Virus record (IMG/VR): IMGVR_UViG_3300042503_001836
Span: 1-64,000 of that record
Direction: 5' to 3' (one strand)
Length of the DNA stretch: 64,000 nucleotides
Origin: a virus
Shown here: in pieces, positions 1 through 6,089 of the stretch
Layout of the letters: every line of letters starts with the position of its first letter
Position numbering within the stretch: position 1 is the first letter of the stretch
Program-made: the position numbers and the translations under genes
Notes under the pieces: model-generated
What the model saw: only the letters and a program-made list of their open reading frames with translations
Databases searched by the model: none
Told to the model about the DNA's origin: nothing

Positions 1-194
1 CTTGAGAAAGGTGAGTAAAGCTATCAAAGTGCTGTTTTATCTGATTTAGGGGACTTATCCGAGGTCGCATCGGCGAGAGCCTTTATCATCAGATCCCTAC
101 AGTTAGAGGGTTTAGGTGGTCAAGCTACTGTTTCAAGCCTGTCTATTAGTTCCTGTTTAATCTTTAATTCCCCGGCCAAAGTTCCTTAAAGGTA

Positions 195-312
195 GTTTCA
201 ATCCAACTCCTTGTTACGGGAGTATTTGTGTTTAGCTATTGTTTCAAGCCTGTCTATTAGTTCCTGTTCCTAAATGTTTCAATCCAACTCCTTGTTAAGG
301 GAGTATTTTAGC
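195..312 (-). CRISPR. Degenerate two-repeat mini-array (195-231 and 276-312) of the phage type I-C repeat
   Basis: GTTTCAATCCAACTCCTTGTTACGGGAGTATTT and GTTTCAATCCAACTCCTTGTTAAGGGAGTATTT compared with array consensus GTTTCAATCCAACTCCCTATTAAGGGAGTATTTATAC; 44-nt gap between them. Confidence 0.85.
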
Positions 313-485: not shown

Positions 486-589
486 GCCTTTATTTTAAAA
501 TTCTCTAAAACAACAAGCTAACTAAAAATCTACCCTAAACCCCCCTAATTCTGCTAATCTTAAATAACTGATATGCAAGGACAATCATC

Positions 590-805
590 ATGGGCAGGAA
601 AAAACAAAACAAAACCACCTTCATAGTTCGCATGGATGCTGATAAACGTCGGCAACTAGAGGAACAGATCATCGAACTAGGGTACTACTACACTAGGGAT
701 GGTGTATTGCTCCCTAGCATTGGCAGATATTTAGAGGACGTAGTAGACGGTAAAATATTACACCATAAAAGAATTTTAGATTTAAGTATTGACAATTCAA
801 AATAA
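590..805 (+). CDS. Small DNA-binding protein, possibly ribbon-helix-helix
   Basis: 71 aa; basic N-terminus, then alternating beta pattern TTFIVRMD followed by a helix; AGGA RBS. Confidence 0.45.
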   Translation: MGRKKQNKTTFIVRMDADKRRQLEEQIIELGYYYTRDGVLLPSIGRYLEDVVDGKILHHKRILDLSIDNSK

Positions 806-823
806 CTGATATACAGTTATAAA
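789..823 (+). promoter_or_regulatory. Phage early-type promoter, copy 1
   Basis: TTGACA-17-TACAGT; 35 bp identical to 2611-2645. Confidence 0.75.
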
Positions 824-872
824 CATAGGAGACAGGGAAAAACAAAAAACCACTCACGCCCTGGTTAAGTTG

Positions 873-2066
873 ATGACTACAGCTAAATTACAACAACGTC
901 AAGCTACATTAATCAACTTAATCACTCGTGTAGGCGGTCGCCAAAACATCCAGAAATGGATGGATGAACTTCTGCAAATTGACGTAAAACTTGAAACAAA
1001 GGAAGAAAACAAGATGTTTAAAATCAATGCTACTGATTTACATATCTCTATTCAAAAAAAATTAGCCAAATTAATTGATGGTAAGCTGGTAAAAGGCGTT
1101 ATCACTACATCAGTTGATCCTGACTCTCTCAACTGGCACGAATTAGAAATTAATATCTATGGCTACATTGATACTGATGCTGACAGACTATACGAATGTG
1201 TGTCATGGGAAGAAGCAACTCTAATTGTGGATAGCTTAAAATTAGCTATTAAATCTAATTTTACCAGTCTAGATGACTGGCATAAATATCAAACAAGAGG
1301 TGCTTGGGGATTCTTTGGGAGCAGCCTAGATCAAGGCATTAGCTACTACATACTTGGACTAGATCGCAAATATTGCGGTCAAGTTTTCAAAGCTACTGGA
1401 CGTAATAAAGACGTTGCCACTTATGAACAGATGGACGGCTTTGGCTTTGCCGATTCTGTTGACAAGCACGTTTTCACAAAATGGGAATACAAACACTCAG
1501 ATGGTACTATCATCTGGGTTGCTGAAAATAGAAAAATTTACACTATTCCTACAGAACAGGAAGTAGTGGGGAGAATACAGTCTCTAATTTATGAACACTG
1601 CAAAAGAGAAAAAATGACATGGCAAGATTTTGTTAGTGACATTGAAAATCGAAAACAAAAAAATGCAGCATTTGATGCTGCTGAAGAAGCCGCTAGAAAG
1701 GCTGCTGAAGTAGCTATTCCTGCACCAGAATGGTATCAAAAAGAAATCTACTCCAAATCACTATCTCGCTTTTGGATAGGCGATGATTACTTATACTTCT
1801 TTTACTGGAACACTAGAGATGGCAGTGTTTGGGAAGAGTGCGATGATCGTACTCGCGGCTTAGATAACAGAACCAGAAATCGTAGGTCTTTAGGATCTGA
1901 CAAGGAAGTGGTATTAAACTACATCCATGCGCTACTTCAAAAGCGTGAAGAGTACAGTCAACGCAAGCAAGAGCGTGAGGAAGCTTATGAGGCTTATAAG
2001 AAGGCTCAAAAAGCCAAAGGTGGCATCATTAAGCCTTTAGAAAAATGGCTGCAAACTGTAGCCTAA
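873..2066 (+). CDS. Hypothetical protein
   Basis: ~397-aa open ORF downstream of a promoter; no recognised motif. Confidence 0.75.
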   Translation: MTTAKLQQRQATLINLITRVGGRQNIQKWMDELLQIDVKLETKEENKMFKINATDLHISIQKKLAKLIDGKLVKGVITTSVDPDSLNWHELEINIYGYIDTDADRLYECVSWEEATLIVDSLKLAIKSNFTSLDDWHKYQTRGAWGFFGSSLDQGISYYILGLDRKYCGQVFKATGRNKDVATYEQMDGFGFADSVDKHVFTKWEYKHSDGTIIWVAENRKIYTIPTEQEVVGRIQSLIYEHCKREKMTWQDFVSDIENRKQKNAAFDAAEEAARKAAEVAIPAPEWYQKEIYSKSLSRFWIGDDYLYFFYWNTRDGSVWEECDDRTRGLDNRTRNRRSLGSDKEVVLNYIHALLQKREEYSQRKQEREEAYEAYKKAQKAKGGIIKPLEKWLQTVA

Positions 2067-2123
2067 CCCACCTGATGAGTCCGGCTGACTACCGGACGAA
2101 ACTACCATCTTGGTAGTCGTGGG
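2067..2123 (+). ncRNA. Hammerhead ribozyme (type I) HH1
   Basis: CCCAC-CUGAUGA-GUCCGG(7-nt loop)CCGGAC-GAAA-CUACCA(ucu)UGGUAG-UC-GUGGG; predicted cut after C2118. Confidence 0.93.
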
Positions 2124-2153
2124 AAGTTTATAGTTATACCCACTAGGAGATAT

Positions 2154-2510
2154 ATGATCTACTCATTTTTGGATAAGGAAGTTGCTGAAAAATTAAATGT
2201 AACTGCCGATGCTACATTTACCAAAGAATATGGGAACAAGTTTGTTTTCTCTTTAGATGAAAACAATCTAGTAATCAGTGAAGAAGAAGACAACTATGGA
2301 GACAAATCAATAGTCAACGCTGATCATATTCAGCTAAAACCAGGTGATAAAATTATTGCTAGATCAATGGATGGACTGACTGTCATCAGTCTTTTAAAGA
2401 TGGGCGTGAAAGTCGCATTACTTCAATTTGAAGTAGTGGAACTTCCTATTGATAAACAAACATCTGCCAAGAAAGCAGAATTAGTCTATTCATTAGTCTC
2501 ACTAGACTAA
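2154..2510 (+). CDS. Hypothetical protein, paralog of 2999-3298
   Basis: AGGAG RBS; shares MIYSFLDKE..EKLNVT.D and LK.GD.IIA..MDG.TV with 2999-3298. Confidence 0.8.
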   Translation: MIYSFLDKEVAEKLNVTADATFTKEYGNKFVFSLDENNLVISEEEDNYGDKSIVNADHIQLKPGDKIIARSMDGLTVISLLKMGVKVALLQFEVVELPIDKQTSAKKAELVYSLVSLD

Positions 2511-2513
2511 TAC

Positions 2514-2571
2514 CCCACCTGATGATGAGAGGTTGACCACCTCTCGAAACTACCATCTTGGTAGTAGTGGG
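2514..2571 (+). ncRNA. Hammerhead ribozyme HH2
   Basis: CCCAC-CUGAUGA-U-GAGAGG/CCUCUC-GAAA-CUACCA/UGGUAG-UA-GUGGG; one extra U after the core; predicted cut after A2566. Confidence 0.88.
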
Positions 2572-2610
2572 AAGTCTATAATTATACCCACAAAAAAATT
2601 AATTTAGGGG

Positions 2611-2645
2611 TTGACAATTCAAAATAACTGATATACAGTTATAAA
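2611..2645 (+). promoter_or_regulatory. Phage early-type promoter, copy 2
   Basis: Identical to 789-823. Confidence 0.75.
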
Positions 2646-2674
2646 TAAGAAACCGAAAGAGGAGAATAAAACAA

Positions 2675-2908
2675 ATGATTAACAAAGCATTAGAAAGACC
2701 TGAATATTTAAAACCCCAAGAACAGAAGTTCTGGGATGTATGGACTTATAGATATCAAGATGGTAGCGAAGTTTTAAGTTGTCATATTTTTACAGACAAG
2801 AAAGAAGCAATTAAATTTGCTTCTGAATCTGGTGGGGACTTTAACGAAGAATACTATTATTCTACAATTGAAGAAATGAAAAAAAAGAGAGGTATTAAAC
2901 ATTTCTAA
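2675..2908 (+). CDS. Hypothetical protein
   Basis: GAGGAG upstream; 77 aa; stop codon directly before HH3. Confidence 0.75.
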   Translation: MINKALERPEYLKPQEQKFWDVWTYRYQDGSEVLSCHIFTDKKEAIKFASESGGDFNEEYYYSTIEEMKKKRGIKHF

Positions 2909-2910
2909 TA

Positions 2911-2966
2911 CCCACCTGATGAGGGAGGCTGGCTACCTCCCGAAATTACCATTAGGTAATAGTGGG
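2911..2966 (+). ncRNA. Hammerhead ribozyme HH3
   Basis: CCCAC-CUGAUGA-GGGAGG/CCUCCC-GAAA-UUACC/GGUAA-UA-GUGGG; compensatory changes in stems II and III; predicted cut after A2961. Confidence 0.92.
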
Positions 2967-2998
2967 AAGCTAAAGTTTCAAACCCACAAGGAAACAAG

Positions 2999-3298
2999 AT
3001 GATCTATTCTTTTTTGGACAAAGAAATTACTGAAAAATTAAATGTAACGCCGGATGTTATATTTTCAAAACACAAAAAAGAAAACCTATTTCGATTTAAA
3101 ATTGAAGGTAGAAAATTGACTGCTATTGACACTACTTTCAATTTTAGTGGTCATATTTATGAGAATGTCAATATTATCGAGTTAAAAGTCGGCGATCAAA
3201 TAATTGCCGAAGCAATGGATGGTTCAACTGTAGTTGAATTAAACCATTTGGGTGTTAAAGTATCACTACACACTGACAATAAATTAGTTAGTATCTAG
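2999..3298 (+). CDS. Hypothetical protein, paralog of 2154-2510
   Basis: Shared N-terminal and internal motifs; AAGGA RBS. Confidence 0.8.
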   Translation: MIYSFLDKEITEKLNVTPDVIFSKHKKENLFRFKIEGRKLTAIDTTFNFSGHIYENVNIIELKVGDQIIAEAMDGSTVVELNHLGVKVSLHTDNKLVSI

Positions 3299-3307
3299 CT
3301 ACTAATC

Positions 3308-3364
3308 CCTACCTGACGAGGGAGGTTAGCTACCTCCCGAAACTACCATCTTGGTAGTAGTGGG
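3308..3364 (+). ncRNA. Hammerhead ribozyme HH4
   Basis: CCUAC-CUGACGA-GGGAGG/CCUCCC-GAAA-CUACCA/UGGUAG-UA-GUGGG; CUGANGA core; predicted cut after A3359. Confidence 0.92.
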
Positions 3365-3396
3365 AAGCTTAAATTCACACCCACAAAGGAAATAAG

Positions 3397-3696
3397 ATGA
3401 AAGGTTATTTTGTTGACAATTCCAACTTCTCTGGAAAAGATGACCTTTTCCAAGTCCTAAATGGTAAAAGCCGTCGGTTGACTTTTGAAGGTGAGAAAAG
3501 AAATGAAATAGACGGCACTTGGAATACCAGAAATTTTGATGGTATCTCCTACGCGCATCCCGACTCTATTTTGTCTTCTATTCCAGAAGAATTTAAAGAC
3601 CGATTTAGTAGAGTACCCGATCCGGGTAGCACCTCACCCACTTATAAACCCACAGGCGAACCCCGCGAATGGGGTGATTACGGAGATGATGACTAA
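3397..3696 (+). CDS. Hypothetical protein
   Basis: AAGGA RBS, ATG, 99 aa. Confidence 0.7.
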   Translation: MKGYFVDNSNFSGKDDLFQVLNGKSRRLTFEGEKRNEIDGTWNTRNFDGISYAHPDSILSSIPEEFKDRFSRVPDPGSTSPTYKPTGEPREWGDYGDDD

Positions 3697-4054
3697 GGGT
3701 ATTCTATGGGGTGTCTTACAATCACCCCTAACCATCCTCAAGCGTTACCCCTATGGAACGCCGCACCACGTAACACTTCAGTTTGGAGTAGATCGTGAAG
3801 ACTGGATAGACTGGGAAGGTAAGATATTCCAAGCCTCAACACTCTATGAGGCTTGGAACGGTAAAATACAAGCGGTAACGTTGCAATTACCTAAAAGTAT
3901 TCCCTGTCAGATTCAAACACCACACATAAGTATTAGCTGGTGTGATGGTGTCAAGCCTTACGAATCAAATACTATGCTTGCATCAGAATTTGATTCTCAG
4001 ATAATCGTAAGCGCGTATAAATTTAAGATTGAATTTCTGGAGTGGACAACATGA
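3686..4054 (+). CDS. 2H phosphoesterase (2',3'-cyclic phosphodiesterase-like)
   Basis: Two HxT/S motifs (HVTL, HISI) followed by VKPYESNTML, as in tRNA-ligase CPDase-type 2H domains; start reassigned to ATG 3686/3689 after GGAG. Confidence 0.7.
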   Translation: MMTKGILWGVLQSPLTILKRYPYGTPHHVTLQFGVDREDWIDWEGKIFQASTLYEAWNGKIQAVTLQLPKSIPCQIQTPHISISWCDGVKPYESNTMLASEFDSQIIVSAYKFKIEFLEWTT

Positions 4055-4461
4055 ACGTATATTTCTTTTCTCGCCATGATGCACAACCTCAAATGATCAC
4101 CGATCTAGGTGGCACGATCACAGAACAATTCAAAGGAACAATCTCTAGCATTGTTAAAGATGGAGATTCTATCAAGTTTTCAGAAATAACATTGGGTGAA
4201 ACTGAAGCGGTTTCACATAGTATCCCCAAAGATTCAATAGTAGTGGCTGTTGCACCACTACCCATACAAGAAGCATGGCTAAAGGCTGGGATTGAGGTGT
4301 TTCTCGCACCACAAAACAGAAAAGAGACAACAGAGGACGGACAAGTGATCTTTAACTACTCAGGGCTATTGCGTATCTTAAAAATAGAAGTTATTACAGA
4401 ACAATGGACAGGTGCAAGTCCTACTATTGAAGATAAGCACTTAGAGCGAAGCAAACTATAA
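4051..4461 (+). CDS. Hypothetical alpha/beta protein with N-terminal FSRH motif
   Basis: ATG overlaps the previous stop (ATGA); MNVYFFSRH...VVAVAPLP. Confidence 0.7.
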   Translation: MNVYFFSRHDAQPQMITDLGGTITEQFKGTISSIVKDGDSIKFSEITLGETEAVSHSIPKDSIVVAVAPLPIQEAWLKAGIEVFLAPQNRKETTEDGQVIFNYSGLLRILKIEVITEQWTGASPTIEDKHLERSKL

Positions 4462-4471
4462 GTAAAGCTTT

Positions 4472-4496
4472 ACCCGTCACCAATGGCGGGTTTTTT
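4472..4496 (+). terminator. Intrinsic terminator ending the ribozyme operon
   Basis: ACCCGTCA-ccaa-TGGCGGGT followed by a T run. Confidence 0.75.
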
Positions 4497-4563
4497 ATTT
4501 ATTTTAGGTACTAAAAAACCCACATCTAAAGATAAGATCCGGGTTAAATTTATTAAAATATAT

Positions 4564-4830
4564 TTAATTTTTCCCTGCACTATTTTTAATTTCCAATGCT
4601 CTGATCCTCTCATCCTGACTAGCCAATGCAGCTAAGATAGTCTTGTTATTTTCATTCAGAGTAGACAGTTCCACGCGCATCCGTACTATTTCAGAATAGT
4701 TCTGGGATAAAGTATTGACAACGCTGATTGCACTTGTAGAAATTATCCCAGTAACCAACATGACTATCCACGATGATAGTCTCATGTTACTTGGGTCTTT
4801 GGATTCTTCCTCTTCTATGCTCATATTCAC
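4564..4830 (-). CDS. Small single-TM coiled-coil protein (holin-like or membrane protein)
   Basis: Hydrophobic WIVMLVTGIISTSAISVV followed by a heptad-rich C-terminus. Confidence 0.55.
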   Translation of the reverse strand: MNMSIEEEESKDPSNMRLSSWIVMLVTGIISTSAISVVNTLSQNYSEIVRMRVELSTLNENNKTILAALASQDERIRALEIKNSAGKN

Positions 4831-5000
4831 CCCCTTTGATATCCCCCATGCCTACGTATACATAATTACTACTAAATTAGCATATAAAATTTTTAAATAA
4901 CAAAAAATCCTTACTACAATTACCACAGTAGTAAGGATGATAGAATAAAACAAAGGTAAAACAAGATGTACTTTCACAAGGACACTTGATCTATCTTATA

Positions 5001-6089
5001 TCACAGATTTTTATTAATTGCAAACATCTGTGATAATTTTAGGAGATTTGACTCTAGAGTCAACTTTGGGAACTTGGAATTATTGAACTCAGTCTCGGAT
5101 TCTCTAAGTAAAATTGATGCGTCTACCAGTTTATTAATTGGTAATTTACTACCCCAAGCCCTAGCAGCATTATAGGTTTTTGAGTCACAGGTCATAATGG
5201 TGTAGTCAATGGGTGTAGACTGTGAGGCAATGGCATTTCTCACAAAATTACTAACCTCACCTAACAACACAATCGGATCACTACCAGATTTAAAAAGTTC
5301 TTTCAACTGCCTATAGATTGCCGTGTAATCTTGACTAACACAGGCATCAAGTAAAGCTATCATATTGACCGCAGGAACAACGCCCAAAAGTTCATAGATA
5401 TCATTTTCCGTCTTAGCTTCTGACAAAATAACTTTATCCAAAAGTGTCAAGGTATCTCTAAGAATCCCATCGCCGTGACTGACTAGAATCTTGAGTAAAT
5501 CAGGTGCAATACTGTAATCTTCCTCTTCTAAAATTTTTTGGCAGTATGACCGCAGTTCGTAGTCTTTAATTGGGGCAAAGTTAAAGGTTTGACACCTAGA
5601 CTGAATAGTTTTAGGAACTTTTGATAACTCCGTTGTCACTAAGATAAACACAACCTTCTGACCTGGCTCTTCTAAAGTCTTTAACAGGGCATCAAAAGCT
5701 TGTTTAGTAAGATTGTGTGCCTCATCTAAAATATAGACTTTATAGCGAGAATAACCTGTATAGCAGACCTTAGAAACTAGTTCACGGGCATGATCAACGC
5801 CATTGTTAGTTGCACAATCTATTTCATAGATACCAAAGCTAACACCAGCCTGGATATCCAAACAAGTTCTACAAGTTCCACAAGGATCTGAAGTGATACC
5901 AGTTTGGCAATTCAAAGACTTAGCTAAAGCCCGCGCTGTTGATGTCTTACCCGTACCTCTAGCACCTGAAAATAAATAAGCAGAATGTAATTGTTGCTTA
6001 TTAATTGAATTGATTAAAGTTGTAGTGGTAAGACGTTGACCTACTACTTCTTTTAGAGTTTGGGGACGGTATTTTTGAACTAAAGACAT
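5001..6089 (-). CDS. dnaX: DNA polymerase III gamma/tau clamp-loader subunit
   Basis: KYRPQT, GARGTGKTS Walker A, Cys zinc module, DEAH, LLKTLEEP, SRC motif. Confidence 0.95.
   Translation of the reverse strand: MSLVQKYRPQTLKEVVGQRLTTTTLINSINKQQLHSAYLFSGARGTGKTSTARALAKSLNCQTGITSDPCGTCRTCLDIQAGVSFGIYEIDCATNNGVDHARELVSKVCYTGYSRYKVYILDEAHNLTKQAFDALLKTLEEPGQKVVFILVTTELSKVPKTIQSRCQTFNFAPIKDYELRSYCQKILEEEDYSIAPDLLKILVSHGDGILRDTLTLLDKVILSEAKTENDIYELLGVVPAVNMIALLDACVSQDYTAIYRQLKELFKSGSDPIVLLGEVSNFVRNAIASQSTPIDYTIMTCDSKTYNAARAWGSKLPINKLVDASILLRESETEFNNSKFPKLTLESNLLKLSQMFAINKNL

Follow-up and report, generated by a model that had tools for sequence, protein, structure and literature searches.

Four predicted type I hammerhead ribozymes between genes of a CL131-related virus, with a covarying pseudoknot and a lineage-specific refolding hairpin

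The locus and its genes

Our analysis covered a 64-kb window, the first 64 kb of an IMG/VR virus record of 118,553 bases (118.5 kb), and the virus it comes from is kin of Aphanizomenon phage CL131. Four hammerhead elements (HH1-HH4) lie within 1.3 kb of this window, with one gene between each neighboring pair (Table 1). The surrounding genes form a co-oriented string between a promoter-like sequence (789-823) and a terminator-like hairpin (4472-4491), in agreement with the first-pass annotation, which had read the elements as punctuating a phage operon; as it also proposed, the mRNA may be an early one. The 35-nt sequence of the promoter-like P1 recurs exactly as P2 (two copies against none expected), and with P2 as an internal promoter gene B need not rely on processing.

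Table 1. Features of the putative transcription unit, in window positions
Feature	Position	Strand	Remarks
Promoter-like P1	789..823	+	TTGACA, 17 nt, TACAGT; contains a 7-5-7 inverted repeat
398-aa ORF	870..2066	+	No Pfam or PHROG family; stop codon adjoins HH1
HH1, predicted type I hammerhead	2067-2123	+	Predicted cut after C2118; 77.3 bits (E 4e-16)
HH1 3'-product hairpin	2119..2143	+	2119-2123 with 2139-2143; then RBS-like AGGAG, ATG 2154
Gene A, 118 aa	2154..2510	+	Paralog of A'; orthologs in relatives follow a hammerhead
HH2, predicted type I hammerhead	2514-2571	+	Predicted cut after A2566; 75.8 bits
HH2 3'-product hairpin	2567..2591	+	2567-2571 with 2587-2591
Promoter-like P2	2611..2645	+	Exact 35-nt copy of P1; follows HH2, precedes gene B
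Gene B, 77 aa	2675..2908	+	N-terminus like post-hammerhead genes in several related viral contigs
HH3, predicted type I hammerhead	2911-2966	+	Predicted cut after A2961; 69.5 bits
HH3 3'-product hairpin	2962..2987	+	2962-2966 with 2983-2987
Gene A', 99 aa	2999..3298	+	Paralog of gene A
HH4, predicted type I hammerhead	3308-3364	+	Predicted cut after A3359; 67.0 bits
HH4 3'-product hairpin	3360..3384	+	3360-3364 with 3380-3384
Gene C, 99 aa	3397..3696	+	Follows HH4
122-aa protein, putative minimal 2H phosphoesterase	3686..4054	+	Homolog of CL131 gp125
139-aa ORF, last gene of the unit	4042..4461	+	Under a DNA match to CL131 (hypothetical proteins)
Terminator-like hairpin, 8 bp + T run	4472..4491	+	Sole strong + strand candidate in 817-5200

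Parts of this gene order recur in related viruses. Three relatives (L012, L018 and L094) carry a ~400-aa ORF, a hammerhead and an A-like gene in succession, and L012 and L034 have another hammerhead in front of a B-like gene; the ~400-aa ORFs found before a hammerhead in relatives are orthologs of the 398-aa ORF. Most leaders measure 31-41 nt. The products of A and A' share 48% identity (E 6e-24), and the cassette of a hammerhead with A or A' was duplicated, both ribozymes staying intact through compensatory changes. The CL131 genome holds two hammerhead copies as against four in the window, both without annotation, and one of them overlaps the coding sequence of a 24-aa "hypothetical protein". 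Their predicted cuts lie on the minus strand of MG209611, at 105183/105182 and 98391/98390. Gene B was matched to a CL131 gene by eye only, and comparison of the 398-aa ORF with CL131 gp131 found no homology. CL131 is in culture, its host can be grown, and it carries the same ribozyme family, so that in vivo cleavage is directly testable there.

Two genes downstream of HH4, in the same operon, the 122-aa protein is probably a minimal 2H phosphoesterase, as judged from its sequence features. It has two H-x-T/S motifs, in which both histidines and the threonine of the first motif are invariant across 20 aligned homologs and the second motif ends in Ser or Thr. Its PF08302 score of 22.8 bits lies against a cut-off of 23, and a precomputed match to this family exists for 28 of 34 homologs. 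The profile of the protein found no sequence match in the PDB. With the predicted structure (pLDDT 78.6), Foldseek repeatedly returned the catalytic domain of mouse CNPase (probability up to 0.98, TM 0.44, E 0.06) and gave no match at E<=0.001. The search for a link to RNA repair found neither RtcB nor an RNA ligase nor a homolog of the CL131 polynucleotide kinase/phosphatase; the sole AAA_33 match was the clamp loader (18.3 bits).

The hammerhead elements and their pseudoknot

By their predicted folds, HH1-HH4 are canonical type I hammerheads. Each contains the core C3 U4 G5 A6 N7 G8 A9 with G12 A13 A14, and each reads as CUGANGA, a 6-7-bp stem II hairpin, GAAA, a 5-6-bp stem III hairpin and a 5-bp stem I. 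Stem III includes the A15.1-U16.1 pair, which is followed by U and then by H (C or A). The residue H17 is C, A, A and A in the four elements and never G, and from the chemistry of the class cleavage is predicted after it. The topology is type I, with stem I open and loops closing stems II and III. Stem I begins 0, 3, 2 and 9 nt after the upstream stop codon in HH1-HH4, respectively. The first-pass annotation had placed four type I elements here, on the plus strand and 0-9 nt past stop codons; all were found at those positions, the covariation it quoted for stems II and III is correct, and the core and helices lead to the same predicted cut sites (2118, 2566, 2961 and 3359).

Small departures distinguish the copies. 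HH2 has one additional U between A9 and stem II, the majority state (consensus) among its relatives; an extra core nucleotide has reportedly been described in a viroid hammerhead. HH4 has C at N7 and a U.G wobble within stem I, and stem III of HH3 carries a compensatory change from C-G to U-A. All four copies share one 3' strand of stem I, and three of them also have the same 5' strand.

We aligned 42 distinct elements, the four from the window and 38 relatives, many of which are close kin. The relatives were picked by a sequence pattern and by a structural descriptor requiring the core and paired stems, and 96.9% of 877 cells in the alignment are paired partly by construction, because selection was for these features; 16 of the 21 pairs vary on both sides. 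The covariation score was reached by none of 500 shuffles, and slid controls were 27-48% paired. The A15.1-U16.1 pair is A-U in 42/42 elements, and none of the core bases given above varies in any row. Within the window copies alone, 83 of 84 pair cells are standard, and five pairs changed on both sides (three in stem II, one in stem III and one in the pseudoknot). This pseudoknot, a helix of 3-4 bp, joins loop II to the four bases after stem I, the 3' tail; in HH1 it pairs 2087-2090 with 2125-2128. It lay outside the selection criteria, and across the 42 elements it is 89.8% paired, with all four pairs varying on both sides. The loop II/3' tail pseudoknot is the putative tertiary contact between the regions of stem I and stem II.

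The elements stand out clearly from chance. The sequence pattern matched four times in the window and never in 100 dinucleotide shuffles. The structural descriptor, which combines the core with the three helices, returned the four sites and an alternative register of HH4 (cut after 3356, 3-bp stem III), dropped as the weaker solution, against none in 200 shuffles; across the whole 118,553-base record, it found no further type I, II or III hammerhead. A covariance model (R1), built without the window from 34 relatives on other viral contigs, scored HH1-HH4 at 67-77 bits and nothing else in the 64 kb at E<=10. The first viral scan gave 118 loci, 78 of which failed the descriptor and were removed. 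The pattern also matched at least 120 loci in genome contigs, and among the matches listed four passed the descriptor; the other loci are most likely chance matches, from which host range is not inferable.

The Rfam search proposed in the first-pass annotation gave a different outcome, as no model reached its gathering score in the 64-kb window. The best match was RF03152 (RAGATH-1 hammerhead) at 18.0 and 14.7 bits (gathering cut-off, 56.3), and no other hammerhead family was among the listed matches at E<=10. At permissive E-values, only sub-threshold matches to RAGATH-1-hammerhead and RAGATH-7 overlap the elements, whereas two other sub-threshold matches there do not. The RF03152 model shares the type I topology, and its core, stem I and stem III can be aligned with the window elements; it differs in stem II, where the full 6-7 bp hairpin of the window elements is an insertion. 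This viral subfamily is abundant and yet missed by Rfam models, which means that virome ribozyme censuses at Rfam thresholds undercount.

A refolding hairpin on the cut 3' product

Each predicted 3' product begins with a pentamer, the 3' strand of stem I, that can pair again with a second copy of its complement downstream of the cut (Table 1). Among the 42 elements, 32 have a Watson-Crick complement of the first 5 nt at +8..+45, compared with 1/42 at +45..+85 and 0/42 in the 40 nt upstream; for a 4-mer complement the count is 40 of 42 against 2 and 1 in the controls. Base 1 is paired in the minimum free energy fold of the first 45 nt in 41/42. The downstream copy also follows changes in stem I: six of seven GCGGG elements have a CCCGC partner, the sole ACGGG element has CCCGU, and CCCAC occurs in none of these eight. 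In eight rows the 5' strand of stem I is inexact, and the downstream copy exactly complements the 3' strand in six of them. HH4 has the same property, its downstream arm being fully Watson-Crick to the 3' strand while the ribozyme's own 5' strand is not.

This hairpin is restricted to certain lineages and is not general. It is present in both members of a separate GUAGC/GCUAC lineage. In a sample chosen regardless of stem I (27 elements minus one with a stem I under 4 bp), it was found in five of 26 elements, namely GUGGG 3/4, GUAGC 2/2, AGGAU 0/11, GGGAU 0/6 and others 0/3. A hairpin upstream of the ribozymes was not supported as a general feature (-4.3 vs -3.3 kcal/mol in controls, Wilcoxon p = 0.11, 41 elements). 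When each state is enforced in turn, nearest-neighbor energies, in which the pseudoknot is ignored, make the refolded hairpin 0.2-3.3 kcal/mol more stable than stem I; before cleavage, the hairpin could for this reason be a competitor of the active fold. Narrow literature searches did not find the refolding hairpin in print, and a term search did not find it in the main text of PMC3088659. Conserved and covarying, the hairpin offers a hypothesis, open to mutation, for why the cut message survives.

Proposed mechanism, alternatives and known systems

Taking these observations together, we consider it probable, though far from certain, that HH1-HH4 are functional ribozymes in one P1(789)-P2(2611)-terminator(4472) unit that fold, cut and refold to yield single-gene mRNAs. 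As sequence and covariation show, each element folds through stems I-III and the 3-4-bp pseudoknot between loop II and the bases after stem I. According to the chemistry of the class, the upstream mRNA would keep nearly the whole ribozyme, with its stem II and stem III hairpins and a 2',3'-cyclic phosphate end, and the first base of the stem I 3' strand would become the 5'-OH end of the downstream mRNA. This strand would then switch to the second, better-matched pentamer 10-16 nt downstream, a pairing that conservation and covariation show; the resulting hairpin would be flush with the newly made 5' end, with the RBS and start codon predicted within about 10 nt. The long message would be converted into single-gene mRNAs structured at both ends, and the hairpin would sequester the 5'-OH end of the cut mRNA. 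Because the 3' strand swaps its partner, the cut would become irreversible and the 5'-OH end may be shielded from 5'-3' exonuclease.

A more specific version is possible but doubtful. It holds that the hammerhead of this lineage forms half of a two-state processing-and-capping module made of RNA only, a natural counterpart of RiboJ in which the flush hairpin seals the 5'-OH, and that this seal arose in response to the destruction of 5'-OH mRNAs in hosts that possess RNase J; the downstream 2H phosphoesterase may also act on the cyclic phosphate ends.

Other roles for the elements seem unlikely to us. One is that the ribozymes mainly mark the borders of mobile or shuffled cassettes, the ~80-nt element being a recombination hotspot and cleavage incidental. 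Hammerhead number differs between relatives (4 here, 2 in CL131), as does the gene before the hammerhead (the 398-aa ORF is no homolog of gp131); the HH-A cassette was duplicated, and a wide variety of genes follows the ribozyme across the 42 elements. However, recombination sites need neither a catalytic core nor compensatory stems, and both are present; the downstream pentamer, moreover, follows RNA complementarity and not a simple direct repeat in six of the eight informative rows. The cassette-border and processing roles are not mutually exclusive. We give equally little weight to a regulatory switch, in which Mg2+, temperature, transcription speed or a terminating ribosome would set the choice between stem I and the hairpin and so tune how much of each gene's mRNA is severed from its neighbor. 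The near-equal energies of the two folds would suit such a switch, as would the start of stem I 0-9 nt after a stop codon, a distance within the terminating ribosome's reach. Passages of Perreault et al. (PMC3088659) discuss salt-tuned hammerheads in haloviruses. Nevertheless, we see no element that would bind a ligand or act as a sensor, and some lineages lack the hairpin. The pseudoknot, moreover, contributes its 3-4 bp to the active fold alone and should thereby tilt the precursor toward cutting.

Two further readings are much less credible. Hammerhead cleavage is chemically reversible, and stem I is shared, so that docking could occur between any 5'-OH end and any ribozyme upstream of it; ribozyme-catalyzed ligation after cleavage could in this way produce circular single-gene RNAs or spliced transcripts. 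This outcome is very improbable in our view, since the conserved hairpin occupies exactly the 5' bases required for docking and non-cognate tail-to-loop II pairing would be weaker, as judged by eye only. In the relevant passages of PMC3088659, Perreault et al. sought circular or spliced products and detected none. The circularization suggested by the first-pass annotation is likewise unneeded by the sequence, and the hairpin would hide the 5'-OH that it requires. It is slightly less plausible still that the motifs are decayed or chance look-alikes without activity. The missing Rfam gathering match, the extra core-adjacent U of HH2 and the wobble in stem I of HH4 could be taken in this sense, but most relatives have the extra U too, and the absence of matches in 200 shuffles, the 67-77 bits with an independent model and the compensatory changes all speak against this reading.

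The processing role that we prefer has a close precedent. Passages of Perreault et al. 2011 (PMC3088659) describe clustered hammerheads that flank single genes of prophages and phages, propose for them a role in dividing long transcripts into gene-sized mRNAs, show in vitro cleavage for three tandem arrays from other organisms, and report for all three types a pseudoknot replacing the loop-loop contact. The window resembles those arrays in having several canonical hammerheads close together and co-oriented with small phage genes, each neighboring pair enclosing one gene in this virus record, and in sharing the pseudoknot; it differs in host group, its virus being a cyanophage of the CL131 kind. 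The phage arrangement has thus been known since 2011, and the window array adds no new principle; the protein-free cutting into single-gene units favored by the first-pass annotation is the interpretation that earlier work gave to arrays of this kind. In D. vulgaris, type II hammerheads situated close to phage-like genes cleave in vivo, as stated in part of PMC8782182, and passages of two reviews (PMC6765202 and PMC6155905) describe the role of bacterial and phage hammerheads as open. A title and abstract search found no paper on cyanophage hammerheads, and a search for recent work on phage-ribozyme function brought up nothing related. What goes beyond the first reading is the covarying pseudoknot and the lineage-specific refolding hairpin.

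In phage T7, host RNase III cuts the early polycistronic mRNA between genes into hairpin-ended monocistronic mRNAs with 5'-phosphate and 3'-OH ends. A protein enzyme acts there, in contrast to the self-cutting RNA predicted here, which would leave 5'-OH and 2',3'-cyclic phosphate ends. The glmS ribozyme of B. subtilis likewise cleaves itself within the leader of a bacterial mRNA and leaves a 5'-OH on the coding part, a product that RNase J1, a 5'-3' exonuclease, takes as its substrate (Collins 2007, cited in a passage of PMC3328962), contrary to the first-pass expectation that 5'-OH ends would be poor RNase J substrates. However, the 5'-OH marks the glmS mRNA for destruction, whereas in the window a flush hairpin is conserved that would be expected to hinder such decay. 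The synthetic insulator RiboJ combines a hammerhead with a 23-nt hairpin before the RBS, as described in part of PMC7536230. As in the predicted products of the window, its leader is trimmed by the ribozyme to a fixed 5' end, with the hairpin placed after the cut and before the RBS. RiboJ, however, is an engineered device to which the hairpin was added as a stem of its own, while the window hairpin reuses the 3' strand of stem I and would therefore form solely at the expense of the ribozyme fold.

Identity of the four hammerheads

On the + strand, the sequence between 1800 and 3700 contains four near-identical intergenic elements (HH1–HH4; see table), with stem I starting 0, 3, 2 and 9 nt after a stop codon. 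From 5′ to 3′, each element comprises the 5-nt 5′ strand of stem I, the CUGANGA core, the stem II hairpin (6–7 bp, with a loop of 5–7 nt, the exact size turning on whether one more closing pair is included), GAAA, the stem III hairpin (5–6 bp, closed by A15.1-U16.1), H17 (C, A, A and A in HH1–HH4) and the 3′ strand of stem I. The cut sites predicted by the first-pass annotation, after 2118, 2566, 2961 and 3359, match this anatomy. Standard pairs occupy 83 of the 84 pair cells among the four copies, and five pairs have changed on both sides. A sequence pattern retrieved exactly HH1–HH4 from the window and nothing from 100 shuffles. A custom structural descriptor, which demanded the core and all three helices, returned HH1–HH4 and one weaker alternative register of HH4, against none in 200 dinucleotide shuffles, and across the complete 118.5-kb record it retrieved no other hammerhead, be it type I, II or III. 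This IMG/VR virus record, whose bases 1–64000 make up the window, has 118,553 bases and an estimated completeness of 93%; the sole deposited phage to match is Aphanizomenon phage vB_AphaS-CL131 (79% DNA identity, 628 bases).

The Rfam search that the first-pass annotation had called for came back negative, with no family at its gathering score within the window. At permissive thresholds, RAGATH-1-hammerhead scored 18.0 bits on HH1 and 14.7 bits on HH3 (cut-off 56.3), and the matches listed at E<=10 included no other hammerhead family. A sub-threshold RAGATH-7 match (23.4 bits against 111.8, E 0.014) covers HH2 and the P2 region and is probably driven by hammerhead-like segments.

Because the Rfam check formally failed, an independent covariance model was built from 34 distinct elements, none of them from the window. 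A pattern scan of viral contigs had given at least 118 loci; among those listed, 40 passed the descriptor and 78, probably chance matches, were dropped. The relatives' model scored HH1–HH4 at 77.3, 75.8, 69.5 and 67.0 bits (E 4e-16 to 1e-13) and retrieved nothing else at E<=10 in the 64 kb. In the cultured phage CL131, it also detected two copies, which scored 79 and 53 bits. Neither is marked in the CL131 annotation, and a 24-aa 'hypothetical protein' CDS, gp130, which is probably not a gene, overlaps one of them. The four window copies are the type I hammerheads that the first-pass annotation had taken them for, and the array is a real, well-supported set.

Features of the hammerhead array and its surroundings (window coordinates unless an accession or contig is named)
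Feature	Coordinates	Strand	Position	Remark
Interleaved direct repeats	123–308	+	contig end	35 nt x2 (123, 234); 33 nt x2 (195, 276)
Diverged third copy of promoter-like repeat	562–609			
71-aa ORF	590–805		just upstream of P1	candidate regulator
Promoter-like P1	789–823	+	start of string	
398-aa ORF		+	between P1 and HH1	
7-bp hairpin	2047–2063	+	just before HH1	from final codons of 398-aa ORF
HH1	2067–2123	+		
Gene A	2154–2510	+	between HH1 and HH2	
RAGATH-7 match	2480–2644	+		sub-threshold
HH2	2514–2571	+		
P2	2611–2645	+	between HH2 and gene B	identical to P1 over 35 nt; 7-5-7 inverted repeat inside
Gene B	2675–2908	+	between P2 and HH3	
HH3	2911–2966	+		
Gene A′	2999–3298	+	between HH3 and HH4	
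HH4	3308–3364	+		
Gene C	3397–3696	+	after HH4	
122-aa protein gene	3686–4054	+	after gene C	
139-aa protein gene		+	after 122-aa protein gene	
Terminator-like hairpin	4472–4491	+	end of string	
CL131 hammerhead	L005 6672–6734 = MG209611 98379–98441	minus	overlapped by gp130	53 bits; stem I mismatch
CL131 hammerhead	MG209611 105171–105232	minus		found by relatives' model

A pseudoknot and a second partner for stem I

We aligned 42 distinct elements, the four in the window and 38 relatives. The full structure, in which the pairing of stems I–III is partly guaranteed by selection, is 96.9% paired, against 27–48% for slid partners, and 16 of the 21 pairs show changes on both sides. A fourth helix lies outside the selection criteria: four loop II bases pair with four bases beginning one base past stem I. 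This loop II-tail pseudoknot is 89.8% paired in the alignment, with both-side changes in all four pairs.

We regard a refolding hairpin as the most interesting detail of the array. A second complement copy of the stem I 3′ strand lies 10–16 bases downstream of that strand. After it come an RBS-like sequence and a start codon, the latter within ~10 nt in all cases but HH2; the leaders after HH1–HH4 are 35, 108, 37 and 37 nt long. The five bases that open the 3′ product have an exact Watson-Crick complement at +8..+45 in 32 of 42 elements, against 1/42 at +45..+85 and 0/42 in the 40 nt upstream; for four-base complements, the count is 40/42, against 2 and 1 in these controls. Base 1 is paired in 41 of 42 minimum-energy folds of the first 45 nt of the 3′ product. 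When precursor folds with stem I or with the hairpin were enforced, nearest-neighbour energies, which ignore the pseudoknot, differed by 0.2–3.3 kcal/mol and slightly favoured the hairpin.

The downstream copy might represent either an RNA partner or a direct repeat at the DNA level. The partner changes in step with the 3′ strand, being CCCGC in six of seven GCGGG elements and CCCGU in the single ACGGG element. Moreover, in eight rows, HH4 included, the 5′ strand within the ribozyme itself matches only with a wobble, and the downstream copy is a perfect complement in six of these. Because of both observations, the covariation of the downstream pentamer points to RNA pairing rather than to a DNA-level repeat.

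A second viral scan, with stem III fixed and stem I free, added 46 loci representing 27 distinct elements, one of which was dropped (stem I <4 bp). The refolding hairpin was present in 5 of the 26 elements: 3/4 with GUGGG as stem I type, 2/2 with GUAGC, 0/11 with AGGAU, 0/6 with GGGAU and 0/3 of the others. The hairpin is lineage-specific, and a narrow search of the published literature did not find it. Viral contigs of ~100–270 kb (L259–L303) carry a separate type I hammerhead lineage with stem I AAUCCU/AGGAUU (11 distinct copies) and an A-rich leader without the refolding hairpin.

The gene string and a putative 2H phosphoesterase

HH1–HH4 lie within one co-oriented gene string. The 35-nt promoter-like repeat with its inverted repeat is probably an operator, for which the 71-aa ORF could encode the regulator. 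Genes A and A′ are paralogous, sharing 48% identity (E 6e-24); therefore, we infer that a ribozyme-plus-gene cassette was duplicated, with both ribozymes still intact. Parts of the gene order are common to related viral contigs: a ~400-aa ORF, a hammerhead and an A-like gene follow one another in L012, L018 and L094, and an additional hammerhead stands upstream of a B-like gene in L012 and L034. The gene before the ribozyme in CL131 is unrelated to the 398-aa ORF. L012, L034 and L094 carry the 7-bp hairpin before HH1 at the orthologous position, with one G.U to A-U change; upstream hairpins are not a general feature before hammerheads (p = 0.11). In the repeats at the contig end, the 33-nt unit includes a hairpin with a T run after it, and the region could be CRISPR-like or a terminator-repeat region.

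Pfam and PHROGs gave no match for the small proteins of the string, apart from a borderline one of the 122-aa protein to the tRNA-ligase cyclic phosphodiesterase domain (PF08302; 22.8 bits, cut-off 23). This protein, homologous to gp125 of CL131, contains two H-x-T/S motifs; an alignment of 20 homologs shows no variation at either histidine or at the Thr of the first motif, and Ser and Thr both occur in the second. CNPase catalytic domains were the only consistent structural neighbours of its predicted fold (pLDDT 78.6), at E ~0.06 and none at E<=0.001. The protein, which shares an operon with the ribozymes, probably represents a minimal 2H phosphoesterase; it may act on ribozyme-made cyclic-phosphate ends or on other substrates, for example cyclic nucleotide signals. 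Neither RtcB nor an RNA ligase or polynucleotide kinase was found in the phage.

Putative processing and relation to known arrays

Given the motif, helices, pseudoknot and alternative pairing observed here, we propose a putative mechanism for processing of the transcript. By the known chemistry of the hammerhead class, cleavage after H17 would generate a 2′,3′-cyclic phosphate and a 5′-OH. Type I anatomy implies that the upstream mRNA would keep nearly the whole ribozyme, with its two hairpins, at its 3′ end, and that the downstream mRNA would retain nothing of it but the stem I 3′ strand. This strand could then snap onto its downstream partner to form a flush 5′ hairpin, which would render the cut irreversible. 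RNase J is present in cyanobacteria. The first-pass annotation had expected 5′-OH ends to be poor substrates for this enzyme, which is contradicted by the B. subtilis result, as related in PMC3328962 (citing Collins 2007), that RNase J1 acts on the 5′-OH product of the glmS ribozyme. Because of this attack, we suggest by analogy that the hairpin may shield the mRNA from RNase J1-type enzymes. The suggestion that segments between ribozymes circularise found no support: the hairpin occupies the docking bases, and Perreault et al. 2011 (PMC3088659) detected neither circles nor spliced products.

The processing reading itself is likely right and in line with the published proposal for phage arrays. 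As described by Perreault et al., prophages carry multiple hammerheads around single genes or short blocks, proposed to convert long phage transcripts into operon- or gene-length mRNAs, and three tandem arrays cleaved in vitro. Hammerhead function was still called open in reviews from 2017 and 2019 (PMC6155905, PMC6765202). The pseudoknots that Perreault et al. describe for all three hammerhead types are of the same kind as the loop II-tail helix, and the closest functional analogue of the ribozyme-hairpin element is the synthetic RiboJ, a hammerhead with a 23-nt hairpin (PMC7536230). The window array belongs to the already-known class of clustered phage hammerheads.
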